This document shows positions 13,813-34,550 of a DNA stretch of 34,633 nucleotides, piece by piece. The translations under genes and the position numbers were made by a program. The stretch spans positions 1-34,633 of the forward strand of contig CAZCLV010000002.1 in NCBI GenBank assembly GCA_964499645.1. The letters run 5' to 3'. Position 1 is the stretch's first letter. Each line of letters starts with the position of its first letter. The DNA is from an uncultured Mycoplasma sp. GTDB lineage: Bacteria; Bacillota_I; Bacilli_A; RF39; UBA660. The notes under the pieces were generated by a model. It had not been told where the DNA came from. It searched no databases and was given only the letters and a program-made list of their open reading frames with translations.

Positions 13813-14505
13813 ATGCTCAAAAAACTAAAGATTATTTTGGTGTTTATCTCATTGTCAGTAGCTCTTTGTTTGATGAGCAATACTTATTCAAGATATGTCT
13901 CAGATGCAACTGGTAATGTTAACTTATCTTTTGCAAATTGGCAAATTCTCGTAAATAGCAATGATATAACTAGTAATTCATCTACTGAATTAACTTTTAT
14001 TCCAGTAATTGAACAAAATAGTAATGTTAAATCAGGAGTTGTTGCTCCTTCTTCAAAAGGTTATTTTGATATTCAGATTAATCCATCAAATGTTGATGTT
14101 TCATTTACTTACTCAATTACATTGGGTGTTACAAATGAAAATATGCCTGATTTAATGATTACAAAGTATTCAATAGTTCCGGATGGATATATTGAAGGTA
14201 ATGCCTTAGAAGTAATAGAATTACAAGATAATAATATTACTAACACCTTGAATTATAATAAAAATATAAACAACTTTAGATTTAGTCCATTCACTATAAG
14301 AGTTTATTTTGAATGGTATGAAGGAAGCAATGAAACAATGGACGATGCAGCAGATACACTAGTAGGAGAAACCGCTGTAAGTGACAACACTACATTTACT
14401 ATAAATGCAAATATAAGTTTTGAACAGGTTATAACACAATCTCAAGCACAAACACAAAATAATGAAGAAAATCCTGTAGTTGAAGAAGAAGCCCCAAATG
14501 AATAA
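13813..14505 (+). CDS. Secreted TasA/camelysin-class protein with SipW-type signal motif (small class)
   Basis: Signal peptide ending ...LMSNTYSRYVSDATG (compare TasA/camelysin GT(W/Y)A.F.D). Beta-rich body. Penultimate strand FTINANISFEQ is typical of the family's terminal ...a.Q strand. Acidic tail. Confidence 0.6.
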   Translation: MLKKLKIILVFISLSVALCLMSNTYSRYVSDATGNVNLSFANWQILVNSNDITSNSSTELTFIPVIEQNSNVKSGVVAPSSKGYFDIQINPSNVDVSFTYSITLGVTNENMPDLMITKYSIVPDGYIEGNALEVIELQDNNITNTLNYNKNINNFRFSPFTIRVYFEWYEGSNETMDDAADTLVGETAVSDNTTFTINANISFEQVITQSQAQTQNNEENPVVEEEAPNE

Positions 14506-14527
14506 AAAGCCATTATGGCTTTTTTTA
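14504..14527. terminator. Bidirectional rho-independent terminator between convergent fibre-locus genes
   Basis: AAAAAGCCA (14504-14512) / TGGCTTTTT (14516-14524), loop TTA, T-run to 14527. The A-run on the left provides the T-tail for the minus strand. Confidence 0.75.
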
Positions 14528-14597
14528 TTTATAAAATGTTTAATTTTATAAAAGCATTAACTATTTTTATACTGGTTGAAGTTAAAACTTTTATTTA

Positions 14598-15818
14598 TTA
14601 CTTTATATATTCTATTACTGGAATAACCTTACATAATGAAGTTTTACTATTCCCAAATATTTTAGAATTTACATTGTCAATCTTTTCATATGAAAAGACT
14701 TTTTCATTATTATAACCTGTATTTATCCAATAACATGTATCTGATAATAAATAAGTAAATTTTTCATTAATAAACTTGTAATATCCATTTGAATTAATTG
14801 CTTTAGTAATTTCTGTATTAATTCTATCATTATAATTAAGATTTCCTATAAGTGAATCTGATATATTATCTCTTACTAAAAGTGAATTTGTAATATCTTT
14901 GGAAACTATTTTTAATATATCATTTACTGTTAATGGACGTTTATTTACTTCCCATCCATTTGTTAAGTTTAACATTGTAGAGTTATAATTCTCATAGTTT
15001 GAGGTTAAATAATTAGAAGTTGGATCTGGTAATAAAGTTACTTTTTCATCTTCAAGTTTATTATTTATATCTATAACATAAGTTTTTATGCATGTGTTAC
15101 TTATTTCTTGACATATTTGGTTATTTACAACATCAAATAATATTTCTTCCCCTAAGTTATAATTTGGATCACTGGCAATATCATTTTCAATATATTGTTC
15201 CGCCGTAACACTTATTACTATTTGTAGAGATGATCTAATTTCATAGTTTGAATCTGCAGTTTTTTGTTCATTTTCATGTTTTTTAAAATTATATGCATCA
15301 GAACCCCAAATACTATCACTATTGTTATTGCCTGAATCTAATGGCCATGATATAGATACTTCAAAACTACTTTGATCATTTTTTGCCAAAATATAATTTT
15401 TACTTAAATTCATATTAATATGAAAAGGATAATTGTGTGATAATAGATCTTCAACATATTCAGAAGTAATAGTATTATCATCAATTAAAAAGTTGTTTTC
15501 TTCTTTATCTAAAAGTCTAGCAGATATTATTGAATACTTTAAAGTAGCATCTGAATCTCCTAAGTTCTTAATATTAATTAACTCATGGACTGTTTCCATA
15601 CCTGGATATATATTATCTAATGAAATAACTATATCATTTGATACTTTTTTTCCATTTTTATCTAACTCAATATGCCAAGATTTTACTCCTATTTCAGTAT
15701 TAACATTTGATAATCCTGTATATGCAAACCATGCAAAAGTTACTGATATAAGTGAAACTACTATAAAAATTACAGGCATTATATTAATACGTAAATACTT
15801 TTTATACTTGTTCTTCAT
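14598..15818 (-). CDS. Secreted TasA-class protein (FAWF signal motif) with a C-terminal extension of about 190 aa
   Basis: Signal anchor ...LISVTFAWFAYTG. Core strands VHELINIKNLGDSDATLKY and LQIVISVTAEQ fit the TasA-like sandwich pattern. An extra Cys-containing domain follows. GGTGAT-N4-ATG RBS. Confidence 0.6.
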   Translation of the reverse strand: MKNKYKKYLRINIMPVIFIVVSLISVTFAWFAYTGLSNVNTEIGVKSWHIELDKNGKKVSNDIVISLDNIYPGMETVHELINIKNLGDSDATLKYSIISARLLDKEENNFLIDDNTITSEYVEDLLSHNYPFHINMNLSKNYILAKNDQSSFEVSISWPLDSGNNNSDSIWGSDAYNFKKHENEQKTADSNYEIRSSLQIVISVTAEQYIENDIASDPNYNLGEEILFDVVNNQICQEISNTCIKTYVIDINNKLEDEKVTLLPDPTSNYLTSNYENYNSTMLNLTNGWEVNKRPLTVNDILKIVSKDITNSLLVRDNISDSLIGNLNYNDRINTEITKAINSNGYYKFINEKFTYLLSDTCYWINTGYNNEKVFSYEKIDNVNSKIFGNSKTSLCKVIPVIEYIK

Positions 15819-15849
15819 TTATATCACCTACCTTGCATTTACAATATTT

Positions 15850-16428
15850 TTATTCTTCTTTTAGTTTATTTCTTCTTTTTTCTTCTCTTTCCAACATAGT
15901 TGAAATAATTTCTGCCCCAATAATTATTACAATTGGAATTACTATAAATAAAAAGAATCCTATTTTTGTACCTACTATTTTATAAACTAATGATAATAAG
16001 AATACTCTATATATTACTTTTCCATATAATTGTTCTTCATATATAGTTGGATCTTCAACTAAATTAGCTAATCCTCTAGCACGAAAAATATATCTACCAT
16101 TTTCATCTTGTTTAATATTTGTAACTTGATGGGTAATAACTTTCCCATTAAAGTCCCCTTGTTCTCCTAAGTAGCTAATTGTATCGCCAACTCTAATTTT
16201 ACTAGCATCAATCTTTTTAGATATTAATACATCCCCTATTGAGTACTTTGGTTCCATTGAACCAGAAACGACTGTAAACATTCTTAAATTAAAGAATGAT
16301 ATTTTATTACCACTAAATCTTTGTAAACATACTGCTAATATAAATACCACCAATAATATAAAGAACAAAGTACTAAATACTTTCTTAATTATACTAAACG
16401 TTTTATGTTCTTTTTTTTCTTTTTCCAT
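15850..16428 (-). CDS. sipW: Signal peptidase I, SipW (archaeal/ER S26B) type
   Basis: N- and C-terminal TM segments. Motifs VVSGSMEPKYSIGDVLI (catalytic Ser), VGDTISY, VITHQV (His). The track's GTG start at 16437 lies inside the AGGTGAT RBS, so ATG 16428 was chosen. Confidence 0.8.
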   Translation of the reverse strand: MEKEKKEHKTFSIIKKVFSTLFFILLVVFILAVCLQRFSGNKISFFNLRMFTVVSGSMEPKYSIGDVLISKKIDASKIRVGDTISYLGEQGDFNGKVITHQVTNIKQDENGRYIFRARGLANLVEDPTIYEEQLYGKVIYRVFLLSLVYKIVGTKIGFFLFIVIPIVIIIGAEIISTMLEREEKRRNKLKEE

Positions 16429-16437
16429 TTTTATCAC

Positions 16438-17571
16438 CTATAAATAATCTTTTGTCCTTTCTAAATAATCATCCATTGCACTTTTAAATTTATTTTTTAC
16501 ATCGTTACTTCCTATCAATGTATTATTCTTTGCTCTTTTTATTTCTGATGTTACCATACTAAGTATTTCTTCTTCTGTTATCTTTATTCCACTATTTAAC
16601 AATAATGAAACTATTTTTTGTAATTGTTGTGTTATCATCATAATTGCATACTTTGACAGTTTTTCTTTCTGCGCTTTTTTGGTAGAGCAAACAGAGTCCA
16701 ATACATAATAGTCCATTAAGAAAGATTGATCTAAAATTTCTTTTAGAGTATCATTTCCTTCTGTTTCTAATCCCTCATTAAAATTATCATTTCCTTTGTT
16801 ATCATATGTTTGTAGGAACGTCCATAATTTCATAGCAACTTGAAAGTTAGGATTTTTTAAAATAACATTAGTTCTTTTTATTGGAGGAGTTACTGGTGCT
16901 ACATGTATTTTATCCAACGCTTTTGCAAGTTCACTTCTTTTCCAACTTGATATATAATCTTTAATTCTTTTAACTCTTTCTTTTAGTGATTCCATCTCAT
17001 TACCAAAATCATCTTTATTACCATCTTTTGGCAACTCACTTGTTCCTATTTTTAATTCTATTGTTACTTTTTCATTATTAGTTACAGTAGAAGACATATA
17101 TTCTAATGATTTGTTGTTCTTTGTCTCAATTGAATCTAGTTGTGCTTCTTTTTGAAATACAAATCTCACTAAATTATTTAATAAAGTATAAAGAAATCTA
17201 TTTTCATAAGTGTTATATGTTTCTTCACTACGTACATCCAATATTTTTGATGGTTGTACTTCTTCTGTAATAGGATCTATTTTTTCTATAAAGTGTGTGT
17301 TTCTAGATAAATTTTTTACACTGGCCACCGTTATTTTTCTGGCTTTTTCTATTTTTACAATGTTCTCTTCACTAATTAATGCCAGTTTAGGTGCTTTAAA
17401 AATGTTATCAAGGTATTGACAGGCATGTTCAATTTCATCTACCCAATCAAGTACCATATTATCACTAGACAGTTCTGATTTATATTGCATTTTAGAATTA
17501 TTTTTTTCCATAAACAAATCACATTTTTGTTTTAATCCTTCATCAACTAATGAATTGATGTTTTTTGCCAT
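16438..17571 (-). CDS. McrC N-terminal-domain-like protein (DUF2357-like), no convincing nuclease motif
   Basis: EETYNTYENRFLYTLLNNLV resembles the E. coli McrC stretch NEDTLANRIIKSTLAILI (recalled). 377 aa, cytoplasmic. Only a weak E-x-K candidate (EKVTIELK), with no matching upstream Asp. Start lies 13 nt after the stop of the McrB-like gene. Confidence 0.45.
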   Translation of the reverse strand: MAKNINSLVDEGLKQKCDLFMEKNNSKMQYKSELSSDNMVLDWVDEIEHACQYLDNIFKAPKLALISEENIVKIEKARKITVASVKNLSRNTHFIEKIDPITEEVQPSKILDVRSEETYNTYENRFLYTLLNNLVRFVFQKEAQLDSIETKNNKSLEYMSSTVTNNEKVTIELKIGTSELPKDGNKDDFGNEMESLKERVKRIKDYISSWKRSELAKALDKIHVAPVTPPIKRTNVILKNPNFQVAMKLWTFLQTYDNKGNDNFNEGLETEGNDTLKEILDQSFLMDYYVLDSVCSTKKAQKEKLSKYAIMMITQQLQKIVSLLLNSGIKITEEEILSMVTSEIKRAKNNTLIGSNDVKNKFKSAMDDYLERTKDYL

Positions 17572-17584: not shown

Positions 17585-19114
17585 CTATACTGATTTTTTA
17601 ATTCTTTGTAAGTATTCAATACATTCTTTCATAGCGCCTTTTCCAAAATTTGTATCTAAATATGTAATAAATGGATCTATTTCATCACGTATAAATGAAA
17701 TATTTAATTGTTCAAATTTACGGAATATTTTTTTGGCGATAAAGTAATCTATTGCTGCTATTTCATTTCCACCACATGCTACATATACCGGAACAAATGT
17801 CCTCAATTGTTTCATAATACGATTCCCAAATGCTATTCTAAAATGTTTTATAACATAATCATCCATTTCTTTTATTTTATCTAAGTTTGAATCTAAAACA
17901 GGATGTTCTTCAATAGCTGTTTTGAATAATGATTCTAAATAAGTGGAATTAATATCCATTGCTTCTTGTTCTCTACATTTAAATGGATCTATTTTACTAT
18001 TTATATCTATTGGCATTGCACGGTCATATACTTTATCTGTAACCATAAATGTTGAATCATCGTTATTGATTGTACCAATATACCATAAGTTACCTGGTAA
18101 TTTTAATTTTCCACCAATAATTCCTTTGGGATCACTTGCCCAAGAGTTAGTAACAAGTTCGATAATCCATTCATCTCTTGAAGGCATTTCCAGAATTGAT
18201 AGCATTTCTGCAAAGTAATATTCTACACGAGCAATATTCATTTCATCTAGAATTATTGTATGGACATCATCATCGTAATTTGAACGATATAATTCTGCTA
18301 AAACATCTGATTCATTAAACTTTTTAGTAAATTCATTGAAGTATCCTAATAATTCTGTTTTATCTCTCCATGAAGGTTCTACTGATGCTATACATGAGTT
18401 ATTTTTAACAAATTTACCCCAAGCATATGCTAGTGAAGTTTTCCCAGTTCCAGATATACCTTGTAAGATAATTAACTTACCACAAGCAAGAGCCGCAATA
18501 AATGGTCTTAATAATTCAGGATCATAATATAAATGTAATTGCCCTGCTGAATAGCATCTAAAATTATCCATCAATTCTTCTAAAGAGAAGTTATTACCAT
18601 AATTTTTAACTTTATATTCTTCATAATCTTTATCAATCTTTGTAAGTTTAGAAAATCTAATATTTGGATCTTCTTTTGTAGCATCTTCTGGTTTTTCTTC
18701 TGTTGCTTCATCTTGTTCTTCTTCATCAGGTTTTAATCCTAAATGAGATACTTTCATTGCCATAATCTCATTTTTTTCTTTTAGTAACTTTTTTACTTGT
18801 CCATTTAATCCAGCTATTTCATCTAATAGTTCTTCTTGATTTAATTTACCTTTTCTTGATCTTAGGATTCTTTTAATTCCAAAAATTATTAGTAGAATAA
18901 TTAATCCTACAATAATTACTAGTGTTAAAACTGATAATCCAACAAATAACCATTCTGGTCCATTAAAGCTACCTTTATAATTATTAATTATTGATAAATA
19001 GTCATTATAATTAACCATTTGAGTTATTCCTACTCCTATTCCTTTGAAGATTACCATTACTCCATCAAAGAATATAGAAATAAATTCATAAAAAAATCTT
19101 AAAAATGTATTCAT
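17585..19114 (-). CDS. Membrane-anchored McrB-family AAA+ NTPase (GTPase-type)
   Basis: Two N-terminal TM segments, then a coiled coil and acidic linker, then the AAA+ core. Core motifs: Walker A LILQGISGTGKTSLA; HTIILDEMNIARVEYYFAEMLSILE (compare McrB IIDEINRANLSKVFGEVMMLME); NLWYIGTINNDDS..VTDKVYDRA (compare NVYIIGLMNTADRSLAVVDYALRRRF). McrB sequence recalled from memory. Confidence 0.7.
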   Translation of the reverse strand: MNTFLRFFYEFISIFFDGVMVIFKGIGVGITQMVNYNDYLSIINNYKGSFNGPEWLFVGLSVLTLVIIVGLIILLIIFGIKRILRSRKGKLNQEELLDEIAGLNGQVKKLLKEKNEIMAMKVSHLGLKPDEEEQDEATEEKPEDATKEDPNIRFSKLTKIDKDYEEYKVKNYGNNFSLEELMDNFRCYSAGQLHLYYDPELLRPFIAALACGKLIILQGISGTGKTSLAYAWGKFVKNNSCIASVEPSWRDKTELLGYFNEFTKKFNESDVLAELYRSNYDDDVHTIILDEMNIARVEYYFAEMLSILEMPSRDEWIIELVTNSWASDPKGIIGGKLKLPGNLWYIGTINNDDSTFMVTDKVYDRAMPIDINSKIDPFKCREQEAMDINSTYLESLFKTAIEEHPVLDSNLDKIKEMDDYVIKHFRIAFGNRIMKQLRTFVPVYVACGGNEIAAIDYFIAKKIFRKFEQLNISFIRDEIDPFITYLDTNFGKGAMKECIEYLQRIKKSV

Positions 19115-19117: not shown

Positions 19118-21250
19118 CTACTCTCCTCCAAAATCCCTAATTTTATCTGTAATATTTTCACAAATAACTTTATCATATAGTTCTTTTGGTATTTGTGAAA
19201 GGTCATTTTCTTTATTAGTACTATCAACAAATATATAATCTGTTATATATAAATCTTTACGATATTCTTTTGGTACTTCAATATTTGTATTTAATACTAA
19301 TGCAAATTTATATCCAACTTTTTTATATTTTTTTATATTTTGTAAATTTTTTAATAAGTCTTTTAATGTAATTAATATAATAACATTATTTTTTGCATAA
19401 ATATTTTCTATAGTTTTTAATAAACTTTCTAATTTCTTTGTTTTTGTATATATACTTGTTGGAATATATACAAAATATTTTCTATCAAAGTTAGATAAGT
19501 TCATATCATTTATTAATTGAATAGATAATAATGTAGTTAATACTGTCATCTTATCTTCTGCTACTATTCCTTCATTATAGGTTTTATCAATAATGTAATC
19601 ACTGTAGACTTTGCTAAATGAAAGGTTATGTTCTAAATCTACTGCAAACATATCTTTTTTTGGTAACTCAATTAGATTTAAATTAAACATATTTGTTTCT
19701 AATTTTTTTAATAAATAATCTGTCACTTCAAAATAGTGCTTTTGTATTTTCATTATTTCATCAACAATATAATTAACTTTTTCTTTATCCCAATCCAGTT
19801 CTTTTGAATATTTTATTAATTCTTTTTTATAAAATTCAAATTTTGCTTTGGCATCAGTAATTGAGCTGTTTCCTTGTTCAATATTTGCAATTAAAATAAA
19901 TATTTTAGCAAACTTTTCAACTTTATCTTTATACTTTTTATCAGATTCTTTATAATTTTTTACTAATTCATCACTTATTTTTTTAATTATTTTTTCAATT
20001 TTTAAAAATAGTTTTTTTACTACAAATTCATTATTCTTATCATAATAAGTATTATAGTATTTAACACTAATATAAGTATTTTTAAATGTGTCTTTTATTG
20101 AAGATTCATTAACCAATAGCTTTTTATTTTCCATTATAGTATTTATTAGTTCTTCTAACTCATCTTCTTTTATTTGAATTACTTTATCAATAATATTTTT
20201 GCTTTTTTTATTTGATTTGCTATTTTTTAGCATTTCTAAATTAATAGTAGATTCTGCTTCAGTAGAAGTTTCTTCTTGTTCTTCTAATATTTCTACTTCT
20301 TCTATATCTTCTTTATCAACTTTTTTAGGACTTTTAATTTCATTTTTTGCTATTTCAAGAAATGTATCATCTATTTCAGATAAATCAACTGGAATAACTC
20401 TATACATAGATGTTTTTTCTAATTCATCCTCAGTAAGTTCTACTTCATTTTCTTCTATTGAATCTACTGATTTGTTTTCATTATTTAAATTATCAATTAA
20501 TTCATCTTTGGCTTTTTTAATAAATTCATTATCCATATCAACTGGAATTGTCCTATAAATAGCAGTTTTTTCTAGTTCTTCATTTTCTTCTTTAACTGGT
20601 GTTTCTATTTTAACTGCAATAACTTCCTCTTTTTTTTGTTCTTCATCATCAAAGAAGTAATTCTTTTTTTGTTTTTTATTTTTAGTTTTATTTTTTGGAA
20701 ATAATTTATCTACATATTTGTTTATTGATAAAAAATAATTTTTTTGATCTTGCTTTTTTCTAAATAATAAATTAAATATAAATAATGTAACAATAAGTGC
20801 TACTAAAACGCTTGGATTAAATAATGTTCTTCGGAATATGCCAAAGTTATGTAGAACTTTTACAACTTTTCCTATAATTTGGTCTTCTGTTATAGGGGCA
20901 TCTTTTGCATTATTAGCATCACCACGTGTTACATATTTCCCTTTATATACTTCTATAATTCTATGTGTTATATAATCTCCATTTAGTTTATAAGTAACAA
21001 CATCATTTAGTTTAGGGTTTGATGTTGATTTTACTATTATCCAATCACCAGCATTTATGGCATCTGCCATACTACCAGTTTGAACTTCAAATATTGAATA
21101 TCCAAAGAAATCAGCATAATCATTATGAAAAATTCTTATTTGAATACTTGTATATATTGAGATTAATAAAATAATACTAAATATAAATATTAATATATTT
21201 AATAAAAAGTTAATAATTTTTTCTATAATATTCTTTTTATTTGACTTCAT
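19118..21250 (-). CDS. SipW-type signal peptidase fused to a cytoplasmic extension of about 545 aa
   Basis: TM1, then the full S26B set VQTGSMADAINAGDWIIV, VVTY, YITHRI, TRGDANNAKD, then TM2 (LVALIVTLFIFNLLF). After TM2 comes a long K/E-rich region and an alpha/beta C-terminal domain. The track start at 21265 is TTG with no RBS. ATG 21250 has GGAAGGG upstream. Confidence 0.8.
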   Translation of the reverse strand: MKSNKKNIIEKIINFLLNILIFIFSIILLISIYTSIQIRIFHNDYADFFGYSIFEVQTGSMADAINAGDWIIVKSTSNPKLNDVVTYKLNGDYITHRIIEVYKGKYVTRGDANNAKDAPITEDQIIGKVVKVLHNFGIFRRTLFNPSVLVALIVTLFIFNLLFRKKQDQKNYFLSINKYVDKLFPKNKTKNKKQKKNYFFDDEEQKKEEVIAVKIETPVKEENEELEKTAIYRTIPVDMDNEFIKKAKDELIDNLNNENKSVDSIEENEVELTEDELEKTSMYRVIPVDLSEIDDTFLEIAKNEIKSPKKVDKEDIEEVEILEEQEETSTEAESTINLEMLKNSKSNKKSKNIIDKVIQIKEDELEELINTIMENKKLLVNESSIKDTFKNTYISVKYYNTYYDKNNEFVVKKLFLKIEKIIKKISDELVKNYKESDKKYKDKVEKFAKIFILIANIEQGNSSITDAKAKFEFYKKELIKYSKELDWDKEKVNYIVDEIMKIQKHYFEVTDYLLKKLETNMFNLNLIELPKKDMFAVDLEHNLSFSKVYSDYIIDKTYNEGIVAEDKMTVLTTLLSIQLINDMNLSNFDRKYFVYIPTSIYTKTKKLESLLKTIENIYAKNNVIILITLKDLLKNLQNIKKYKKVGYKFALVLNTNIEVPKEYRKDLYITDYIFVDSTNKENDLSQIPKELYDKVICENITDKIRDFGGE

Positions 21251-21287
21251 ATTTACCCTTCCCAATCATATCTTTATTCTATTATTA

Positions 21288-21380: not shown

Positions 21381-21992
21381 CTATTTTAGAAAGTCTTTTT
21401 CGTCTTCTTTTATATTATCTTTTGGTTGATCATTTGAGTCTGCTTTTTGTTTTTTTTCAAATTCTTCTTCATCTTTACTATATTTTATTTCAACTATTAA
21501 CGAATATATTTCATAAATAAAAATCATAAAGCTTGGTACAAGGATCATAAATAAAAAGCCCCATTGTGATTCTACTATTCCTAAATAAGTTCCTATTTTT
21601 TCATATACTTTTGTGGCACTACCTATAATAAATTCTGCATCATAGAATGAACCATTTTCATATGAAAAAGCATTGTCATCAGGAAAAACTTTTCCAACAG
21701 TTCCAAAATCTACTGTTACCTTGCTCTTACTATCTACTTTATAAGCAAACAATTCATCACCAGGATTAATTTCACTTAATTCTTTACTTTTTACTAAAAT
21801 AAGATCTCCTTTTTTATACTTATCAGATGAAACTTCATGTTTTAATATTATTAATGAAGTATCATTTATTTGTGTAACTCCATACTTATTAAAATTCCAT
21901 AGCAATATTGTCATTCCTATTGCAAATGAAAAGAATGCTACTGCTAAAATTCCTATAATAATTTTTTTTATTGCCTTACCTATTTTTTTCAT
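21381..21992 (-). CDS. SipW-like pseudo-peptidase (same topology, catalytic Ser/His motifs absent)
   Basis: N- and C-terminal TM segments. Scaffold motifs KKGDLILVKS and PGDELFAY are retained. The position of SGSM reads HEVSSDKY, and there is no THR(I/V) or GD.N..D motif. Confidence 0.5.
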   Translation of the reverse strand: MKKIGKAIKKIIIGILAVAFFSFAIGMTILLWNFNKYGVTQINDTSLIILKHEVSSDKYKKGDLILVKSKELSEINPGDELFAYKVDSKSKVTVDFGTVGKVFPDDNAFSYENGSFYDAEFIIGSATKVYEKIGTYLGIVESQWGFLFMILVPSFMIFIYEIYSLIVEIKYSKDEEEFEKKQKADSNDQPKDNIKEDEKDFLK

Positions 21993-22967: not shown

Positions 22968-22975
22968 AAAATCAC

Positions 22976-27323: not shown

Positions 27324-27352
27324 CAAGAAAAAACCTCCTTTTTTGGAAGTTA
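27324..27352 (-). terminator. Terminator/attenuator hairpin overlapping the stop of the 542-aa gene
   Basis: Minus strand AACTTCC / GGAGGTT (one G-U pair), loop AAAAAA, followed by TTTTTCTT. Confidence 0.5.
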
Positions 27353-28978
27353 TTCTTTTTTATTTTCTGCTTTATCAATTTTTTCAACTTGACTCATAAA
27401 CCATATTTTTTCAACAGTTGTTGGGCTATCTTCTATTTCTTTAATTCTTAATAATAATTGAATTTTACTTATTAATTCATTTAAATTTTCAGCACTTAAT
27501 GATTCTTCTGTTAAATTAATATTATCTAATCTATATTTATTCATTATAATTCTTGCTAAATTTGAATCTTCAAATATAGCTATTCCATTTAATATTATAT
27601 TAGTAGGATTCATTGCAAATAAATCAAAATTATCACTATACTTAATTAATTCATCATATTTTGTTATTTCAAATACTCTTTTTAATCCTAATTTTTTATA
27701 GTAATCAAAGCTATAATATAAATGTAATACTTCTGACATTGTTAAAGAAGCACTTAATATTGGAGAAATCTTATTTTTTATATATTCTTCATCAAAAGCC
27801 TTATATAGTTCATATATTTCGTTTGCTAAACGTACAGAATCAATTTTTGCTTGTCTTAAATCAGTAGAATTTTTTATTCCAAATAATCCTAGTTTGCCAG
27901 TAAATATTCTTTTATTTAGCTTTTCTAATTTTGCTTCTTTATCTTCAATTTTTTTCTCAACATTGGATAATTCTTTATTTGTTTCTTTTGTATTTCCTGT
28001 TGGAATTAGCTTTTCATATTTTGATTTAAAGTCATTAATTAATGGTAAAAATTCTAAGTAATTACTGTATTCTTCTACATTTGTTTTTAATTTAGCTAAA
28101 CTTTCATAAAATTTATCCATTTGAATTTTATCATCTAAGTCAATATTTTCAATCATAAGACTATTATAAGTTGAAGTTCTTACCTTGCTATCTTGAAAGT
28201 AATTTGTAATATCTATTTCACCTCGTTTAGCAAAATCAATAATATCACAAATATTTTCCTTATCTGCTAAGTTAAGTTTTTTATATACCTCGGCTAATTT
28301 TCTTAAGCAGTCATCATAATTAGATATATTATTTTTAAACATTTCTTCATTTTTTAGTTTTAAAATATAATTATTAAATCTATTTTTATATTTATTAATT
28401 AACTTCCTAAAGTTTAATTCAATATGCCTAATTATTTCAGGATTAACCCAATATATTTTTTCAAACACTTTTGATACATTATCATAATTTTTATTTTTAC
28501 TATTTCTTGCTGCCAAAAATGAAGTCATATATTCATTAACATAACAGGTATAATCAAAATCTGACTCAACAAGGTTTATTCCTGCTGATTCAAATTTGTT
28601 TAAAAATTCATTTATTATGTCATTTAAAGAATTAAAATTAAAATCATAATAATGAAGAATTTGATATATTAAAGTATCAAATCCCATCTTTTCAATATAA
28701 ATATTTGATGGGTTCAATATAAATTTAATATGTTCTAATGCATTAAGTTCTTCATTTAATTTAGCTACATCTTTTTGAGAATTTTTTATATTAAAAGATT
28801 TACTTTTTGTATCTATATATTTTTTTACACTTTTTTGATATTCACTATATTTTCCAATTATTGTATCTATTTTTTCATTATATTTCTTTATATTTGATTT
28901 AGTATTAGTTGGTAAAACTGAAATTAGTGTTTTCTTTGCTTCAATATCCTCATTGATAAAGTCTGAAAAATTAGTCAT
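27350..28978 (-). CDS. Hypothetical cytoplasmic, predominantly helical/coiled-coil protein (542 aa)
   Basis: No TM segment, signal peptide or P-loop. K/E/N-rich heptad-like stretches. ATG lies 1 nt after the stop of the 47-aa ORF, whose last codons supply AAGGAGGAAAA as the RBS. Confidence 0.7.
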   Translation of the reverse strand: MTNFSDFINEDIEAKKTLISVLPTNTKSNIKKYNEKIDTIIGKYSEYQKSVKKYIDTKSKSFNIKNSQKDVAKLNEELNALEHIKFILNPSNIYIEKMGFDTLIYQILHYYDFNFNSLNDIINEFLNKFESAGINLVESDFDYTCYVNEYMTSFLAARNSKNKNYDNVSKVFEKIYWVNPEIIRHIELNFRKLINKYKNRFNNYILKLKNEEMFKNNISNYDDCLRKLAEVYKKLNLADKENICDIIDFAKRGEIDITNYFQDSKVRTSTYNSLMIENIDLDDKIQMDKFYESLAKLKTNVEEYSNYLEFLPLINDFKSKYEKLIPTGNTKETNKELSNVEKKIEDKEAKLEKLNKRIFTGKLGLFGIKNSTDLRQAKIDSVRLANEIYELYKAFDEEYIKNKISPILSASLTMSEVLHLYYSFDYYKKLGLKRVFEITKYDELIKYSDNFDLFAMNPTNIILNGIAIFEDSNLARIIMNKYRLDNINLTEESLSAENLNELISKIQLLLRIKEIEDSPTTVEKIWFMSQVEKIDKAENKKE

Positions 28979-28979: not shown

Positions 28980-29123
28980 TTAATTTTCCTCCTTTTCTTC
29001 TTGAGATATTTTCTTTTCTTCTAAAAATTCAAGAAAGCCCACAATATCTTCATAAACTTTAATTAATTCTTTTAAACTAAGAAGAGACATGTCAAAATTT
29101 ACTTTATTTTCTTCTTTTTTCAT
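28980..29123 (-). CDS. Small acidic protein, 47 aa (not in the ORF track), translationally coupled to the 542-aa gene
   Basis: My translation: MKKEENKVNFDMSLLSLKELIKVYEDIVGFLEFLEEKKISQEEKEEN. RBS AAAGGTGAT-N3-ATG. Starts 20 nt after the stop of the upstream subunit gene. Confidence 0.55.
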   Translation of the reverse strand: MKKEENKVNFDMSLLSLKELIKVYEDIVGFLEFLEEKKISQEEKEEN

Positions 29124-29143: not shown

Positions 29144-30229
29144 TTATTCATAACCCGCTAAATCTTTAAAGAACTGAATTGAAATATCAATAACAGCACC
29201 CTTTGAGTTAGTTACTAAGCTATCCATATCTTGTCCTTCTATCCAAACATAAACCCTTACTTTTGTTATACCATTTGGTATTTGAAATAGTGGTTTATCA
29301 AAATCTGTAATATTTTCTTGCATTTTAAAGTGTTCTAAGTCTGTTGGAACCCCACTACCAGCATGACCATTTGCAATTTCCAAAAATTCTCCTTCTTTTA
29401 TAACTGCAAATGTCGGAGTATAGATTCCATCTATCAGCTTTACTCCATATTTTAGAGCTCTTTCTATTGATGATTGAGAATGATTTCTACTATTAGGTTC
29501 ATAAATAATCATTTCACAATTATTATTGCATTTAATATTTTGAATCATACTTAAATCTGATTTAATAGGAACACTTCCTATCTTTACAAATCCAAGTCTT
29601 ATTGAATTTATTGATCCATCTGCATCATCAAATATTTCTTTATCAAATGTAATTGCAGTTTCTTTTGTTAAATATAAATTATCACTATATGGTGAACCAC
29701 TTGCATTTTTTAAGAAAATATCAAATGCAATAAATGAATTTCCATCACTTGCTTTATCTTCATCTAACAATTTAGTTGAAAGAAGTTTTCTTCTTGTAGT
29801 CTTACTAGCATTAACCTCAATATTAGAAGCAGCAAATACATCAAATTTATAATTATCTTTTGATGATATTCCATTTGTAGAAACGGTATATAATCCTCTT
29901 GAAGCCCATTGATTTGTATGATTTGGATAAGTATTATTTAAGTTATATATTAAATTGTCTCTCGAAATTTCAACTTTACTTCCAAAACCTTTTCCATCAA
30001 ATGATATATATAAACCACTTTCATTAGATACTATCATGTTGAAGAAGTTTACTTTTACATTTAAAGAAGCATAAAACCATGCATATGTTGCTGAAATTAA
30101 CAAAACTCCTACTAAGAAAGTAAATATTAAATTACGATTAAAATTATTTTTTTCTTTATATTTATAATTTACAAAATAATTTTTTAATTGTACTAACTTA
30201 GATTTGACCTTATTAATATCTTTTTTCAC
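29144..30229 (-). CDS. TasA-class fibre subunit paralogue 3 (YAWF class, 361 aa, no Cys-loop tail)
   Basis: ...LLISATYAWFYASLNVKVNFFNM, FIAFDIFLKNASGSPY, IKCNNNCEMIIYEPN and ITKVRVYVWIEGQDMD align with the two larger paralogues. GTG start with AGGTG 8 nt upstream and no in-frame ATG nearby. Confidence 0.65.
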   Translation of the reverse strand: MKKDINKVKSKLVQLKNYFVNYKYKEKNNFNRNLIFTFLVGVLLISATYAWFYASLNVKVNFFNMIVSNESGLYISFDGKGFGSKVEISRDNLIYNLNNTYPNHTNQWASRGLYTVSTNGISSKDNYKFDVFAASNIEVNASKTTRRKLLSTKLLDEDKASDGNSFIAFDIFLKNASGSPYSDNLYLTKETAITFDKEIFDDADGSINSIRLGFVKIGSVPIKSDLSMIQNIKCNNNCEMIIYEPNSRNHSQSSIERALKYGVKLIDGIYTPTFAVIKEGEFLEIANGHAGSGVPTDLEHFKMQENITDFDKPLFQIPNGITKVRVYVWIEGQDMDSLVTNSKGAVIDISIQFFKDLAGYE

Positions 30230-30344: not shown

Positions 30345-31916
30345 TTAGTCTCCAGCTGGCTCTGGTATTGAAAATACTCCACCAATTATATCACAATATC
30401 TTTTTGTTATTCCAGTAGTGGCACATGCTGATGATTCCCATTTACCAAATGAAGTTGTACATGTTATTTCTGACGTTGGCACTGTACCTCCAGTACAAGT
30501 TCCTGTTGTTACTGTTTCAGTAAATATTCCACCAATTGATTCGCAGTATGTTTGTGTTGTAGCAGATGCAGTAATTGCACAAGTTCCTAATCCATCAGGT
30601 TCTCCATCTCCATTAGTGTCCCCAGATGGTGTCCAACTTCCTAATGCTACTTCACATGCATATTTTGTTGTTGGAACATTTTCAGTGTTTCCACCTGCAC
30701 ATGATCCTAATGTTAATGCTGGTCCATCGTATTCTATATCTGCTTCTTTAAATCTTTCTTTTGTAAATCCAAATTTAATAGATATTTTTTTACCTATTGA
30801 AGCAAAATCATAGTTATCAATATCTTGTCCTTCAATATAAACATATACTCTTACTTTTGTAATACTGCTTGGTGCTAATGTCATAAAGTCTGGACGATTA
30901 GTTCCTGTATATTTTTTTTCAGTATCAGTAAAGAATTGATAAGCATTTAATTTCCAAGTATTTCCTGCTCCAAGTGTTTCTTGTGTAGGTATATAAGTAT
31001 TATAATATCCATCATACACATCAATATTATCTGATGATGCAATTGCATCTTTTACTGCATATGTGTTATATGTAGTTCCATCGCTTACTGAACTACAAGC
31101 ACCACTATATGAAGCAATCTTAGTAACATCAAGTCCTGTTTCTAATCTTTTTAAACAAGATGTATTGTACCAACCGATTGCATTGCTTTCATGTTTATCA
31201 TCGTTTGGTTCCCAAATTTGTGCTGTTCTACAAATTCCTGTTACATCTGAATTACTAGTACAAGTAATACCTGTAATTTTACTTACATCAGTAGTAGTTC
31301 CATCTACACGTCCAATTTGTGCAAAAGCAACTCTTACTGAATTTTCTATTCCTGTATTAGCTACACCATCAGATGCTACTGTAACTGCTGAGTCAGTAGT
31401 TAAGAAAATTGCTTCCTCATCTTTTGGTTCAAGTTCAGTAATATATTTTGAACCTGTCGTATTTCTAATAAATAAATCGAATGCCACATATCCTTTATGT
31501 TCTGTTCCATTACTTGAAGCATTATCAATCTTACTAGCTAAAAGTCTATAGCCACCAGGTGTTGGTGTAAGACTGGCTTTTTCAAATAAGATCATTCTTG
31601 AAGAATCTGCATCCATTTGTCCATTTGATGACATTGGAAGCAATCCTTCTCCACCCCAACTATTCTTATGGCCTGTATATGAAACAGTATCTAAATTAGC
31701 TTTACTAATTGTAATGTCTGTTCCCCACTTACTACCATTTAATGATAATAATAAACTTTCTGTTGATGCTATTTCTACATCAAAACTATTTACATTAACA
31801 TTTTGCAGACCAATAAACCATGCATATGTTGCTGCTACTAAAAGTATTGTGCTAAATAAGCAAGTTAATATTAGTCTTTTGATACGCTTTGAACGCTTTG
31901 TTTCTTTTCTTTCCAT
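30345..31916 (-). CDS. TasA-class major fibre subunit paralogue 2 (YAWF class) with C-terminal cysteine-loop module array
   Basis: Signal ...LLVAATYAWFIGLQ. The core is highly similar to paralogue 1. The C-terminal ~120 aa holds repeated C..GG..VPT...C....G.W and C......YC...GG.F modules, plus a TSP3-like loop DTNGDGEPDG. Confidence 0.7.
   Translation of the reverse strand: MERKETKRSKRIKRLILTCLFSTILLVAATYAWFIGLQNVNVNSFDVEIASTESLLLSLNGSKWGTDITISKANLDTVSYTGHKNSWGGEGLLPMSSNGQMDADSSRMILFEKASLTPTPGGYRLLASKIDNASSNGTEHKGYVAFDLFIRNTTGSKYITELEPKDEEAIFLTTDSAVTVASDGVANTGIENSVRVAFAQIGRVDGTTTDVSKITGITCTSNSDVTGICRTAQIWEPNDDKHESNAIGWYNTSCLKRLETGLDVTKIASYSGACSSVSDGTTYNTYAVKDAIASSDNIDVYDGYYNTYIPTQETLGAGNTWKLNAYQFFTDTEKKYTGTNRPDFMTLAPSSITKVRVYVYIEGQDIDNYDFASIGKKISIKFGFTKERFKEADIEYDGPALTLGSCAGGNTENVPTTKYACEVALGSWTPSGDTNGDGEPDGLGTCAITASATTQTYCESIGGIFTETVTTGTCTGGTVPTSEITCTTSFGKWESSACATTGITKRYCDIIGGVFSIPEPAGD
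30781..30841. repeat. 61-nt tract identical to 32379-32439 (paralogue 2 copy)
   Basis: The string gatatttttttacctattgaagcaaaatcatagttatcaatatcttgtccttcaatataaa is present at both positions. Flanking sequence diverges. Confidence 0.9.
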
Positions 31917-32045: not shown

Positions 32046-32073
32046 ATTGTATCATAAATATATTTAATGTCAA
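32046..32073 (-). promoter_or_regulatory. Strong sigma-A-type promoter for paralogue 2
   Basis: Minus strand TTGACA (32073-32068), 16-bp spacer, TGA-TACAAT (extended -10, hexamer 32051-32046). Lies about 130 nt upstream of ATG 31916. Confidence 0.55.
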
Positions 32074-32123
32074 TATAATTTGTCTCATTTTGTCGAAATT
32101 TATTTTAGTTTTTATTGCAAAGA

Positions 32124-32146
32124 AAAAGGTAATTTAATTACCTTTT
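32124..32146 (-). terminator. Rho-independent terminator/attenuator after paralogue 1
   Basis: Minus strand AAAAGGTAAT / ATTACCTTTT, loop TAA, followed by TCTTT. Lies 13 nt after the stop at 32159. Confidence 0.6.
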
Positions 32147-32158
32147 ATTATTTTATTA

Positions 32159-33748
32159 TTATTGTTCAATTATACTCCAAGTGCCGCCTGCTGCTGTACA
32201 ATATGCTTTTGTATTTCCAGCACAAGTTCCACCTTCTCCATTAGTTGTCCAAACTCCACCTGCTGTTTCACAAGTTGATTTTGAGTCAAATGTAATTGTT
32301 GTATCCTTACATACTCCTGGTCCTGTATAATTAATATCTGTATCAGTAAGTCTTTCTTTAGTAAATCCAAAATTAACTGATATTTTTTTACCTATTGAAG
32401 CAAAATCATAGTTATCAATATCTTGTCCTTCAATATAAATGTATATTCTTACTTTAGTAATACTATTTGGAGCTAATGTCATAAATTGTGGACGATTAGT
32501 TCCTGTTAAAAATTTCATTGTATCTGTAAAATATGGATAAGCACTTAAGTAACCGCTTGTTTCTGTGTAAGTACCATCTATTGTATCGCAATAGTCTTTA
32601 TTAAATCCTTCACATTTAGCAGGAGTTGTTACTGTATCACCATCCATAACTGCTGGTGTCCAAATACCATAAGCTGATAAGCATTTTTCTTTGCTAGTTG
32701 GAACAGATCCACCGGTACATGTACCATTTATTGTTGTTCCAGTATAGCCATTATAATCTGTACCATCATAAATATCTACATTATGTCCATTAGAAATATC
32801 TTTATTTACAGCATATGTTCTATATGTTGCATCATTAGTAATTGTATTGCAAGATCCACTATATGAAGCAATCTTTGTTACATCGCTTCCTGTTCTTTTT
32901 AAGCAAGAAGTATCATACCAACTAATTGCGTTTGCTTCATGTGCTTTATCATTTGGTTCCCAAATTTGTGCTGTTCTACAAATTCCAGTTACTCCACCAT
33001 CATTAATTGTAGTAACTTCATCTTCTCCTGAACCTGTTGTTGTAGTGTCAGATTTACATGTAATACCTGTAATTGTTGATGCAGTTGCAGTTGTTCCTAT
33101 TACACGACCTATTTGTGCAAAAGCAACTCTTACTGAATTTTCAATACCTGTATTAGCTACGCCATCTGATGCCACTGTGACTGCTGAATTATTTGTTAAG
33201 AAAATTGCTTCTTCATCTTTTTCATTTAATTCTTTAATATATTGAGTACCAGAAGAATTTTTTATAAATAAATCAAATGCCACATATCCTTTTCTTTCAG
33301 GATCCACTGTTGAAACTTCTTCTCCGTCTACTGTTTCAGTAGTAATATTATAATTTTTAATACGACTAGCCAAAAGTCTATATCCACCTGATGTGTTAGT
33401 TAAACTAGCTTTTTCATATAGTTTCATTCTTGAGGCAGTTGTGTCCATATCACCAATTGTTGACATTGGTATTAGTCCTTCTCCACCCCAACTATTTGTA
33501 TGTCCACTATATGATACGTCGTTTAATGTTGATTTAGAAATATCAACACTTGTATCCCAATCTGCACCATTTAATGACAATAATAAGTCTTCTGTTGTTG
33601 CAATATTAACATCAAAACTTGAAACACGGACAGTTTGTAGTCCGATGAACCATGCATATGTTGCTGCTACTAATATAACTGCACTAAATGCACAAATCGC
33701 AATAAGTTTTTTTACACGTTTTCCACGCTTTTCATTTTGTTTTTGCAT
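32159..33748 (-). CDS. TasA-class major fibre subunit paralogue 1 (YAWF class) with internal and C-terminal cysteine-loop modules
   Basis: Signal ...ILVAATYAWFIGLQ. Core motifs: GYVAFDLFIKNSSGTQY, GICRTAQIWEPN, ITKVRIYIYIEGQDIDNYDF. One module pair is inserted at residues ~341-397 and one is appended at residues 478-529. RBS AAGGAGAA. Confidence 0.7.
   Translation of the reverse strand: MQKQNEKRGKRVKKLIAICAFSAVILVAATYAWFIGLQTVRVSSFDVNIATTEDLLLSLNGADWDTSVDISKSTLNDVSYSGHTNSWGGEGLIPMSTIGDMDTTASRMKLYEKASLTNTSGGYRLLASRIKNYNITTETVDGEEVSTVDPERKGYVAFDLFIKNSSGTQYIKELNEKDEEAIFLTNNSAVTVASDGVANTGIENSVRVAFAQIGRVIGTTATASTITGITCKSDTTTTGSGEDEVTTINDGGVTGICRTAQIWEPNDKAHEANAISWYDTSCLKRTGSDVTKIASYSGSCNTITNDATYRTYAVNKDISNGHNVDIYDGTDYNGYTGTTINGTCTGGSVPTSKEKCLSAYGIWTPAVMDGDTVTTPAKCEGFNKDYCDTIDGTYTETSGYLSAYPYFTDTMKFLTGTNRPQFMTLAPNSITKVRIYIYIEGQDIDNYDFASIGKKISVNFGFTKERLTDTDINYTGPGVCKDTTITFDSKSTCETAGGVWTTNGEGGTCAGNTKAYCTAAGGTWSIIEQ
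32379..32439. repeat. 61-nt tract identical to 30781-30841 (paralogue 1 copy)
   Basis: See the partner feature. Further identical runs of about 35, 32 and 25 nt occur elsewhere in the two genes. Confidence 0.9.
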
Positions 33749-33761
33749 ATTTTTTCTCCTT

Positions 33762-34463
33762 CTATTTTTCTACAAATTCTGAATTAAAATTCATGTGAAT
33801 TTTAATTTCTCCACCCAAAATATTATCATTACATTCTGGATCGTTTCCTTCTAGCCATAAGACAATTGTATATTTTTTTATGTCACCAGGTCTGAATTTT
33901 TCTACATGGTCAAGTACAACCATTTCATCAGATTCAAATGCTACTGTATCTTTTTCTGGTTTCCCACTTGCAGATTTTTTAGCATATGTAACATATTCTT
34001 TGTCTTTGTAAACTCTGATTCTTACAGCCTCATCAACATTTTTTATAACATCATCAATTACTATTTCAGACCAGTAGTCAGATACGTCCTTGCCTTGATT
34101 TTCAATATAAAATGTATAAGCTAAATAGTTTTCACCATTATGTGAGCCATTATGTTCTGTAATATCCTTTGGCAACCACTTATACGAAATATTATCAAAA
34201 TAATCGACAGTTTTCGCATATAACTCAGATCGAAATAATTTGTAATCAGGATTATCATAAATAATAATTCCACGATCTAAATATAAATTTCTGTCTAATG
34301 TTATACTAAAATTACCACCATTATAAATAATACCAACTACTACATATAAAATGAAAAGTAATAATATAAAGATTAGTAATGCTAACTTAATGATTTTAGT
34401 CGTTCTTTTTTTTCGTTTTACTTTGTTAGCGCTTGTTAAAATCTTACTATCCTTGATATCCAT
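33762..34463 (-). CDS. Membrane-anchored TasA-fold-like protein without a SipW cleavage motif (candidate fibre anchor/initiator)
   Basis: Basic N-tail (KVKRKKRTTK) plus one TM segment. No (T)YAWF motif: the sequence after the TM reads GIIYNGGNF. The ectodomain shares YLAYTFYIENQGKDVSDY and YTIVLWLEGNDPECND with the subunit paralogues. First gene of the operon. Confidence 0.55.
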   Translation of the reverse strand: MDIKDSKILTSANKVKRKKRTTKIIKLALLIFILLLFILYVVVGIIYNGGNFSITLDRNLYLDRGIIIYDNPDYKLFRSELYAKTVDYFDNISYKWLPKDITEHNGSHNGENYLAYTFYIENQGKDVSDYWSEIVIDDVIKNVDEAVRIRVYKDKEYVTYAKKSASGKPEKDTVAFESDEMVVLDHVEKFRPGDIKKYTIVLWLEGNDPECNDNILGGEIKIHMNFNSEFVEK

Positions 34464-34522
34464 TTGCCTACCTTTACCCTTTTATGTGCTATACCTAATA
34501 CCTTCTATAATAATATAATTAA

Positions 34523-34550
34523 ATTATAACACTAGTAAAATAATTGTCAA
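34523..34550 (-). promoter_or_regulatory. Strong sigma-A-type promoter of the fibre operon
   Basis: Minus strand TTGACA (34550-34545), 16-bp spacer, TGT-TATAAT (extended -10, hexamer 34528-34523). Lies about 60 nt upstream of ATG 34463. Confidence 0.6.

Follow-up and report, generated by a model that had tools for sequence, protein, structure and literature searches.

Among the loci of the TasA superfamily, tapA-sipW-tasA in Bacillus subtilis and sipW-bsaA-bsaB-bsaC in Clostridium perfringens are compact operons of three to four genes. For BsaA of C. perfringens, a model has been proposed in which oligomers stay tethered by the signal of the newest subunit until SipW cuts it (PMC11580942). 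Larger loci of the superfamily are known as well: haloarchaeal Tafi loci comprise pilins, tip and anchor proteins, TafD as signal peptidase and TafG as an accessory protein of the DUF5305 type (PMC12337348), and AbpX-type loci comprise minor subunits, tip proteins, a signal peptidase and a DUF5305 protein that is sometimes fused to the peptidase (bioRxiv 10.64898/2026.01.04.697558). No NTPase (nucleoside triphosphatase) has been reported for Tafi or AbpX loci, the word "ATPase" occurring in neither text (PMC12337348; bioRxiv 10.64898/2026.01.04.697558). A further kind of locus was described by Bell et al. (eLife 2024, PMC11090510) as a large clade of McrB-like GTPases that bear an NxD motif and have an FtsB-like domain, transmembrane and coiled-coil, fused to them; the clade was named CoCoPALM, treated in one paragraph with a reported association of McrB, McrC and signal peptidase, deferred to a later paper, and placed next to the CoCoNuT defence systems in the McrB tree (PMC11090510). 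Here, a stretch of 34,633 nucleotides from an uncultured Mycoplasma sp. (contig CAZCLV010000002.1 of assembly GCA_964499645.1; hereafter, the window, meaning the whole stretch analysed) was examined for a gene block that joins SipW-type signal peptidases, exported proteins with TasA-like cleavage sites and an McrB-like GTPase. Judged by its architecture, the locus belongs with the named and as yet uncharacterised CoCoPALM kind, of which it would be the first example to be taken apart, and is not categorically new.

The block spans 20.7 kb and forms a 16-gene module of 15 lettered open reading frames (ORFs) and one further ORF of 47 amino acids (aa). The labels A to O run from position 34463 down to position 13813; fourteen ORFs (A to N, 181–1230 aa) are arrayed head to tail along 14598–34463 of the minus strand, and O lies on the plus strand at 13813–14505. 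Coordinates of A to N below refer to the minus strand. All ORFs listed by an earlier note, which had been made by a model from the sequence without database searches, were found to be present. On balance, we favour reading the block as the locus of a surface polymer that is built from several subunits, depends on SipW and is tied to a CoCoPALM module; the polymer would probably be a membrane-anchored fibre. The motifs, homologies, state of catalytic residues and synteny on which this reading draws were determined computationally. The "multi-subunit fibre or appendage machine" of the earlier note agrees with it as far as the dedicated SipW-type export locus, the many cognate exported proteins, the anchor homologue A and the giant candidate tip protein F are concerned, and falls short in that the TasA class applies in part only. 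Like the TasA and BsaA operons, the locus encodes S26B peptidases beside the likely substrates, and the cleavage sites carry T at P3, an aromatic residue at P2, a small residue at P1 and F or Y at P2', with G aligning to TasA in register. Unlike those operons, it has 16 genes versus 3–4, its proteins B, C and D are not detectably TasA-like, no TasA, TapA or BsaA hidden Markov model (HMM) matches, the peptidases comprise, judged by sequence, two active and one dead copy, one being fused to about 550 aa, and a GTPase module is present. With Tafi and AbpX loci it has in common a set of pilin-like subunits, a tip protein of large size, an anchor in the membrane, a signal peptidase of its own and an accessory membrane protein that goes with the peptidase, all of these being candidate roles here. 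It differs from them in being bacterial (monoderm Bacilli), in using Sec-type signals, and in having as its accessory protein the dead SipW paralogue I and not DUF5305, for which none of the 15 proteins gave a Pfam match; I and the cytoplasmic tail of J may be analogous to the DUF5305 accessory. With Tafi and AbpX loci already described, major as well as minor subunits included, and CoCoPALM named in 2024, the earlier view that the known operons are tiny and that this locus is more elaborate than any described system cannot be kept.

The locus is a clade-wide module of uncultured Bacilli from gut and digesters. Homology to D or K served to retrieve the loci. A D-seeded scan in which 185,579 species were represented by one genome each yielded 132 relatives, 80 loci of which were analysed by tblastn with the 15 proteins, and a K-seeded scan of metagenomes (rumen, human gut, digesters) yielded at least 557 relatives, of which again the best 80 loci were analysed. 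The 80 D-seeded loci all stem from uncultured organisms, most of them labelled Bacilli, Mollicutes, Tenericutes or Bacillota; a 1.49-Mb chromosome and a genome of Candidatus Coprovivens are among them. Wherever the contig is long enough, the genes keep the order A-(B/C)n-D-E-F-G-H-I-J-K-L-M-N-O'; D is single-copy in 80/80, and O was found at the same position and orientation in 16 genome loci. The copy number of B/C ranges from 1 to 6 across genomes, a second E occurs occasionally, and the F-G-H-I block is relocated in a few. Identities between orthologues amount to 51–74% for A, 44–60% for D, 32–61% for E, 27–53% for F, 44–57% for L, 51–62% for M, 44–52% for N and 46–61% for O, and to 48–85% for K, where both extremes come from short, partial matches; with the K-seeded loci taken in, a range of 58–76% was noted for K orthologues. 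Among the testable K-seeded loci, J lies upstream of K in 50/54, L downstream in 66/68 and M downstream in 62/62, and in two of the four loci where J was missed the gene order still shows J beside K. K is the most conserved protein of the module and was never found outside it in the best 80 of the at least 557 metagenome relatives.

The genes flanking the module here (smc, def, ftsW, comEA/EC and a sigma factor) differ from those in another of the genomes (L001), which are nadE, a radical-SAM gene and a NUDIX gene. Since the flanks vary between genomes, it is the module that is conserved and not its neighbourhood, and a conserved module with varying flanks contradicts both an "accessory island" and an "inserted restriction cassette". 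Conservation of the gene neighbourhood had been named beforehand as a test, and synteny was indeed found in the 80 loci drawn from the 132 relatives as well as in the K-seeded loci. The "lineage-specific accessory island" of the earlier note is therefore not upheld: clade-wide synteny rules out an accessory island of one genome, the module being conserved at 45–75% identity in at least 132 species-level genomes, and the base composition of the module equals that of its flanks except for the B/C genes. The guanine-cytosine content of the window is about 0.22–0.26 and rises to 0.31 over 30–34 kb; over genes B and C it is about 0.31 as against about 0.24 elsewhere, for which amino-acid composition, expression level or history may account. 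The module is present in many uncultured Bacilli of human gut, rumen, chicken gut and digesters, and its product is likely a major surface structure, which is of relevance to host interaction and to attempts at isolating these Bacilli. As a side observation, F-G-H-I stands upstream of O'-A-C-B-D-E-J-K-L-M-N in three loci (L064, L068, L069), and this relocation suggests separable sub-modules. Records labelled Muribaculaceae, Ignavibacteriales, Actinomycetes or Christensenella also carry the module at 45–60% identity (L002–L004, L010, L016, L018, L019, L022, L025, L047 and L076), probably by way of mislabelled or contaminated bins.

Export signals of a common type were identified by searching the 15 proteins for the regular expression T[YFLW][AS].[FYW] and by locating hydrophobic segments with a simple hydropathy scan. 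The pattern occurs exactly once each in B, C, D, F, G, H, N and O, is absent elsewhere in the 15 proteins, and always stands at the C-terminal edge of a single N-terminal hydrophobic segment (8/8 proteins). It reads TYAWF in B, C and D, TFAWF in N, TYAKY in H, TYSLF in G, TYSRY in O and TLSRY in F, and the consensus among orthologues is STYAWF (B/C/D), TLAWF (N), ITYSxF (G), TxAKY (H), NTYSRY (O) and PTLARF (F); in the D family, Y49, A50 and W51 are invariant (45 sequences). The earlier claim of eight ORFs with a signal motif behind a hydrophobic segment is thereby confirmed, with one motif per protein and conservation in orthologues. Over all 15 proteins, one N-terminal hydrophobic segment was found in A, B, C, D, F, G, H, N and O, two in I, J, K and M, and none in E and L. 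The TasA site is G-T-W-A↓A-F (T25-W26-A27↓A28-F29, cleavage at the arrow), and the fibre chain 8aur_A begins at A28. The eight proteins carry TasA-like residues directly after the hydrophobic core, namely Thr at P3, an aromatic residue at P2 (Leu in F), Ala or Ser at P1 and Phe or Tyr at P2'. It is the Phe at P2' that makes TasA a substrate of SipW and not of LepB (PMC10269814). The motifs fall into two N-terminal classes, a WF-type in B, C, D and N and a [KRL][YF]-type in F, G, H and O; together with two peptidases predicted to be active, these hint at two sub-assemblies.

Signal peptidases were identified with TIGR02228, the model for archaeal/endoplasmic reticulum-type signal peptidase I (S26B), which takes in SipW and has a cut-off of 51.85 bits. 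M (15850..16437) is a SipW-type signal peptidase of 195 aa (81.5 bits) that keeps the Ser of SGSM, the His of ITH and the GDAN motif. J (19118..21265; 715 aa) combines a SipW-type signal peptidase (65 bits; Ser of TGSM, His of ITH and GDAN kept) with a domain of about 550 aa, and its second transmembrane segment (148–166) is followed by basic residues, which by the positive-inside rule would place the tail of about 550 aa in the cytoplasm. I (21381..21992; 203 aa) gave a C-terminal SipW match only (20.6 bits) and is homologous to M (hhalign 96%); the Ser and His positions are replaced in every orthologue aligned, and both transmembrane segments are retained. At the level of sequence, M and J are thus catalytically intact, and I is a catalytically dead paralogue with a SipW fold, so that the "three SipW homologues" reported earlier stand for M and J and need the qualification that I is without the catalytic Ser and His. 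A link between such peptidases and exported proteins of the G type, in the manner of a Rosetta stone, is provided by the natural fusion MBR4672156.1 (annotated "signal peptidase I [Bacilli bacterium]"), in which an N-terminal SipW-type peptidase is followed by a G-like domain at 195–373.

The largest group of exported proteins is formed by B (32159..33748; 529 aa; motif at residue 30), C (30345..31916; 523 aa) and D (29144..30229; 361 aa), which are clear paralogues (blastp 2e-160 for B–C, and 2e-37). D represents the core of the family, C carries Cys-rich C-terminal modules, and B, with Cys-rich modules likewise, is a candidate for the major or variable subunit. A (33762..34463; 233 aa) is a membrane-anchored homologue of these proteins, related to D (hhalign 81%) and C (71%) through the motifs F-x-I-E-N-x-G and W-L-E-G-N-D-P-E-C; it has a strong transmembrane segment (28–46) and no cleavage motif, in agreement with the earlier description of a ninth related ORF with an uncleaved anchor. 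In a greedy alignment, the transmembrane segment of A lies opposite the signal of D, the TYA↓WF site is missing from A, and a further stretch of about 12 aligned columns (about 20 residues by direct count) is absent that corresponds to the first beta-strand (58–67) of the D model; the alignment resumes at GNFSITLD in A and SGLFISLDG in D. The pairing of a B/C/D body with the lack of both cleavage site and first strand suggests A as a base or terminator of the polymer. Strand motifs F-x-[IL]-x-N-x-G and Y-x-[WY]-[IL]-E-G-[QN]-D are common to A to D, as had been noted before, and O has just a looser W-Y-E-G in which the Q/N is not kept. N (14598..15818; 406 aa) aligns with D at hhalign 90% over the first 56 columns only (signal and first strands), i.e., it joins a D-like N-terminus to a different body, and gave no Pfam match. 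According to blastp, the Cys-rich modules (C-x8-12-C-x3-4-G-x-W ... C-x6-9-C-x3-GG-x-[FWY]) recur inside B and C as well as from one to the other; they occupy C-terminal and inserted parts (30345–30800 in C, 32159–32700 in B) and do not occur in D.

D has 519 homologues in a database clustered at 90% identity, the best 120 of which are 46–60% identical save for two near-identical ones, and none of these 120 bears a functional name or a Pfam domain. Its AlphaFold2 (AF2) model (pLDDT, the predicted score in the local distance difference test, 85; predicted template modelling score 0.81) is all-beta beyond the signal helix. A, B, C and D appear, by sequence comparison and model, to be a new all-beta family that is tied to TasA by the signal alone.

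A second group of exported proteins comes closer to TasA. G (22976..23521; 181 aa; TYSLF) is a small TasA-like subunit, H (22062..22997; 311 aa; TYAKY) its paralogue, and O (13813..14505, plus strand; 230 aa; TYSRY) a divergent relative that combines a G/H-like N-terminus with the WYEG motif resembling that of A to D; hhalign gave 95% for G–H, 72% for G–O and 74% for H–O. The G family (37 sequences) aligned with the TasA/PF12389 family (28 sequences) at 92.1% (E 6.3e-7, 78 columns), in register at the cleavage site and at the hairpin L-x-d-L-x-P-G-D-x-x-e-y-x-F-s-v-s-N, and a greedy alignment is colinear up to the last strand (IEIKSWQ in G, FEATQW in TasA). O itself reached 3.6% against the TasA profile. 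An exhaustive profile search placed G in a superfamily of 1052 clusters at 50% identity that are nearly unannotated; among 71 remote relatives, three match Peptidase_M73, four TapA and one BsaA, and one is a natural fusion of SipW with G. The AF2 model of G (pLDDT 80) shows a disordered mature N-terminus (24–41) followed by a nine-strand beta-sandwich, which in Foldseek resembles generic jelly-roll and TNF-like folds (TM 0.3–0.5). G is probably a remote TasA-superfamily protein, to which H and O are linked through G. The "TasA-class" label of the earlier note would accordingly apply to G at the profile–profile level and to H and O by way of G, and is not supported for A, B, C and D or by family HMMs. 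A dTor match of the O family profile was rejected as a repeat artefact.

F (23536..27228; 1230 aa) is an exported protein with the motif TLSRY at residue 36 and GG[LI]xG repeats recognisable by eye, and is a candidate tip protein or adhesin. It had been described as a giant GLUG protein; Pfam GLUG (PF07581) does not match it even at E≤5, nor does any other Pfam family at that threshold. An OmpL47-type domain gave a weak match (2e-4) below the cut-off.

Between J and M lie the two genes of the GTPase module. K (17585..19114; 509 aa) is a membrane protein of the McrB GTPase family with transmembrane segments at 12–30 and 62–80, a conserved heptad-rich helix at about 90–125 and a GTPase domain. 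The profile of the K family matches Escherichia coli McrB (6hz4_A; E 2.4e-5) over residues 194–403 (about 210 residues), with Walker A (GISGTGKT), Walker B (ILDEMN) and the signature motif (GTINNDDS) aligned; AAA_5 was found sub-threshold in 11/13 K orthologues. The AAA+ NTPase of the earlier note is thereby verified and can be narrowed down to an McrB-family GTPase with two transmembrane segments. N350, N351 and D352 do not vary, D353 is conserved to at least 90%, and the ungapped HMMER alignment equally permits a reading as NxxD (N350...D353). L (16438..17571; 377 aa) is a protein with the N-terminal domain of McrC (DUF2357; PF09823, 43.9 bits, cut-off 23.3); Pfam, NCBIfam, PADLOC and PDB sequence searches returned nothing beyond DUF2357 for it, and no nuclease.

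Like the systems named by Bell et al., the locus has an McrB-like GTPase (K) with an N-x-D(D) signature and an N-terminal transmembrane and helical region, an adjacent McrC/DUF2357 homologue (L), and adjacent signal-peptidase-family genes (J, M). The flanking of K-L by J and M fits CoCoPALM by its architecture, and N350-N351-D352-D353 would fit the published statement that NxD is usually followed by D or E, as far as the alignment goes. The CoCoPALM paper is silent on substrates and anchor, on the dead peptidase and on both E and the 47-aa gene, all of which are described here. FtsB/DivIC did not appear among the 25 listed of 71 Pfam families when 13 orthologues of K were searched at E≤5, and a literature search on PDC-M26 and on SipW together with McrB found nothing beyond the CoCoNuT paper. 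McrBC of E. coli (PDB 6hz4) resembles the pair in the GTPase domain of K and the N-terminal McrC DUF2357 of L. Unlike in McrBC, two highly conserved transmembrane segments and the heptad-rich helix of K stand where McrB has its DNA-binding domain, no PD-(D/E)xK nuclease was detected, and the genes lie inside an export and assembly operon.

From these findings we infer a course of events for cleavage, strand exchange, subunit roles and a possible role of GTP hydrolysis. Sec would export the eight proteins with the motif (B, C, D, N, F, G, H, O), each held to the membrane by its signal segment, at whose end T-aromatic-[A/S]↓x-[F/Y] stands. Cleavage after T-aromatic-[A/S] would be carried out by M and J along with the dead paralogue I, and the N-terminal strand set free would complete the beta-sandwich of a neighbouring subunit that is still tethered, in the manner of TasA, BsaA and Tafi. 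Indirect hints at such an exchange are the disordered N-terminus of the G model (24–41) and the first strand of D that A lacks. Incorporation of A would end growth and anchor the polymer, as its base or terminator. F and N, with matching N-termini and unrelated bodies, may sit at the tip or serve as adaptors, and G, H and O may be TasA-like minor subunits. On the cytoplasmic side, K, L and E could join the 47-aa protein and the J tail in a nucleotide-dependent module that regulates or powers processing or assembly. A more specific form of this proposal, in which a K hexamer with L acts as a membrane-tethered motor of McrBC descent, is coupled to a peptidase complex of J with its cytoplasmic tail, M and I, and actively gates or powers the "cleave-and-insert" assembly or the release of a fibre of at least nine subunits, is put forward tentatively and is rather doubtful in our estimate. 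If GTPase-powered assembly were true, this would be the first nucleotide-driven strand-exchange pilus machine and a clear case of a restriction-enzyme motor recruited to the building of a surface organelle. Irrespective of the motor, the analysis supplies a complete and conserved parts list for a CoCoPALM system, namely substrates with SipW sites, an anchor homologue, minor subunits resembling TasA, candidate major subunits that form a new family lacking a known fold relative, a dead peptidase, a long-tailed peptidase and the K-L pair, and makes the question testable why an McrB-type GTPase is wired to signal peptidases.

Several results count against a TasA-like fibre. The NCBIfam model of the SipW-cognate signal (TIGR04088, cut-off 19 bits), which scored the TasA control at 41.1 bits, gave 14.6 bits for the N-terminus of D, for which it was the sole NCBIfam match, and did not match the other seven; recognition by such profiles had been expected by the earlier note and was not found. 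With the pattern in 8/8 proteins and TIGR04088 below its cut-off, the signals would be a divergent variant that is visible by pattern and not by model. No TasA/camelysin (PF12389, Peptidase_M73), TapA or BsaA HMM matched any of the 15 proteins (thresholds E≤0.01 for Pfam, E≤1 for NCBIfam), PF12389 being carried by all control members of the TasA family, and only the peptidases and DUF2357 were recognised by Pfam and NCBIfam. The score between G and TasA is owed in part to the signal peptide and in part to the hairpin, which also matches DUF11/TIGR01451 repeats; one DUF11/TIGR01451 repeat protein matches it 19 times, so the hairpin motif is generic. TasA was absent from the top 50 Foldseek matches of the G model. 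D scored 0.7% against the TasA profile (hhalign), leaving B, C and D with no TasA link, and its model had no significant fold match in the PDB by Foldseek (8aur_A at E 0.09, probability 0.11; the weak rows were the TasA fibre and the Sulfolobus thread, E 0.09–0.2). Where a TasA-like jelly-roll had been anticipated for the models, G shows a beta-sandwich with generic jelly-roll matches. Searching PDB sequences with the family profiles of D, G, O, A, L and E returned no meaningful match. The alignment of A with D is of low confidence at the N-terminus, the very part from which the loss of the first strand is read. Finally, we know of no donor-strand fibre that needs a cytoplasmic NTPase.

In view of the fold results for D, which matches no known pilin, an arrangement was considered in which B, C and D, anchored via A, form a two-dimensional S-layer-like lattice of the envelope and the peptidases merely mature abundant envelope proteins. 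The unusually high conservation of A, D and K for surface appendage proteins (45–76% across species), the strong promoters ahead of A and C, and the presence of several paralogues in variable copy number would all suit such a lattice. We nevertheless consider it unlikely: G, H and O are related to TasA, the anchor homologue A is without the first strand, and no SLH or other cell-wall-binding domain was detected by Pfam in the 15 proteins, and the giant tip-like F, together with the precedent of multi-subunit TasA-superfamily pili, suits a linear polymer better. It is quite unlikely, too, that the exported proteins do not polymerise and are exoproteins or adhesins that depend on SipW, act independently and have a dedicated peptidase set in common. 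In favour of this, the eight substrates have at least three unrelated types of body (B/C/D; G/H/O; F and N). A joint structure is indicated by A as a membrane-anchored paralogue, by the co-occurrence and order of all subunits, which are strictly conserved, and by classes of N-terminal strands held in common (D with N; G with H and O).

The surface polymer with a CoCoPALM module also has to be set against a function in conflict or defence, for instance as a GTPase-switched surface barrier or sensor derived from the CoCoNuT-related NxD lineage of McrB. K belongs to the McrB family, in whose tree CoCoPALM stands beside CoCoNuT, and matches the PADLOC candidate defence protein PDC-M26A (6e-37). 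A defence role is very unlikely, given that no nuclease or effector domain was detected in L or elsewhere, that L, E and J gave no match when K, L, E and J were scanned with PADLOC, that the module was found at high identity in every locus recovered (by D or K homology), unlike patchy defence islands, and that the flanking genes are housekeeping genes (smc, ftsW, def, comEC). The homology of K and L to McrB and McrC would also allow a composite, in which a restriction cassette of the McrBC type was inserted into a fibre operon unrelated to it, an explanation that is extremely improbable and contradicted by the J-K-L-M synteny, as K-L lies between J and M at distances of 3 nt and 0 nt (nucleotides) with L and M in place in 66/68 and 62/62 testable loci, transmembrane segments replace the DNA-binding domain of K, L is without a detectable nuclease, and K is the most conserved protein of the module and stays within it in the best 80 of at least 557 metagenome relatives.

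Two further genes of the module encode proteins without a membrane segment. E (27350..28978) is a 542-aa cytoplasmic protein that was found in 79/81 loci and gave no match in Pfam, NCBIfam, PADLOC or PDB. The earlier count of "three cytoplasmic unknowns" is borne out for E, which matches no known family, and not for L as a DUF2357/McrC N-domain protein. E, the C-terminal tail of J, K and L are not similar to one another by hhalign. Between D and E, an acidic, non-membrane ORF of 47 aa, MKKEENKVNFDMSLLSLKELIKVYEDIVGFLEFLEEKKISQEEKEEN, is located at 28980..29123 (minus strand) behind a GGTGA ribosome-binding site. It was detected by tblastn (E ≤ 1e-6) in 78/81 loci at 45–78% identity (in L057 as a fragment at a contig end), lies directly upstream of E wherever checked, also where E is relocated, and is annotated as a 48-aa gene in L001.

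The spacings between the genes are 13 nt (A–B), 242 nt (B–C), 115 nt (C–D), 20 nt (D–47-aa ORF), 1 nt (47-aa ORF–E), 121 nt (E–F), 14 nt (F–G), an overlap of 22 nt (G–H), 69 nt (H–I), 115 nt (I–J), 3 nt (J–K), 13 nt (K–L), 0 nt (L–M) and 31 nt (M–N). The arrangement on one strand with spacings of 1–30 nt, as given in the earlier note, applies to 9/14 junctions, the remaining 5/14 measuring 69–242 nt. Upstream of A, a near-consensus sigma-70-type promoter (TTGACA, 16 nt, TGtTATAAT) is located at 34523..34550 on the minus strand; within the 20 kb scanned, no other site matches at 12/12 and has the TG extension, and it agrees exactly with the promoter reported before (TTGACA/TGnTATAAT). A second promoter-like site (TTGACA, 16 nt, TACAAT, with TG; 11/12), identified by consensus match only, lies at 32046..32073 (minus strand) within the 242-nt spacer between B and C, and C, possibly with D, may on this account own a strong promoter. 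Promoter-like sites in total do not exceed the shuffled expectation, and just these two stand out. A terminator-like hairpin at 27332..27351 (minus strand) overlaps the stop codon of E; it is a pattern match only, and hairpins in total are no more numerous than expected from shuffling. An inverted repeat (aattccgc...aacggaatt; 34590–34625, minus strand) that lies just upstream of the A promoter may terminate a preceding gene beyond the window.

Scans of the window for Rfam families, tRNAs and tandem repeats returned nothing relevant. On the flank of the module, an ORF of 304 aa between def and smc (9754–10668, minus strand) has no Pfam match at E≤0.001. The region 4874–8791 encodes ComEC (Competence and Lactamase_B domains), ComEA (SLBB and HHH domains) and a protein of the FtsW/RodA family. 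A wall-less host is unlikely, given the FtsW/RodA-family gene, and from ComEC, ComEA and FtsW/RodA in the flank the host probably possesses DNA-uptake genes and a peptidoglycan wall.

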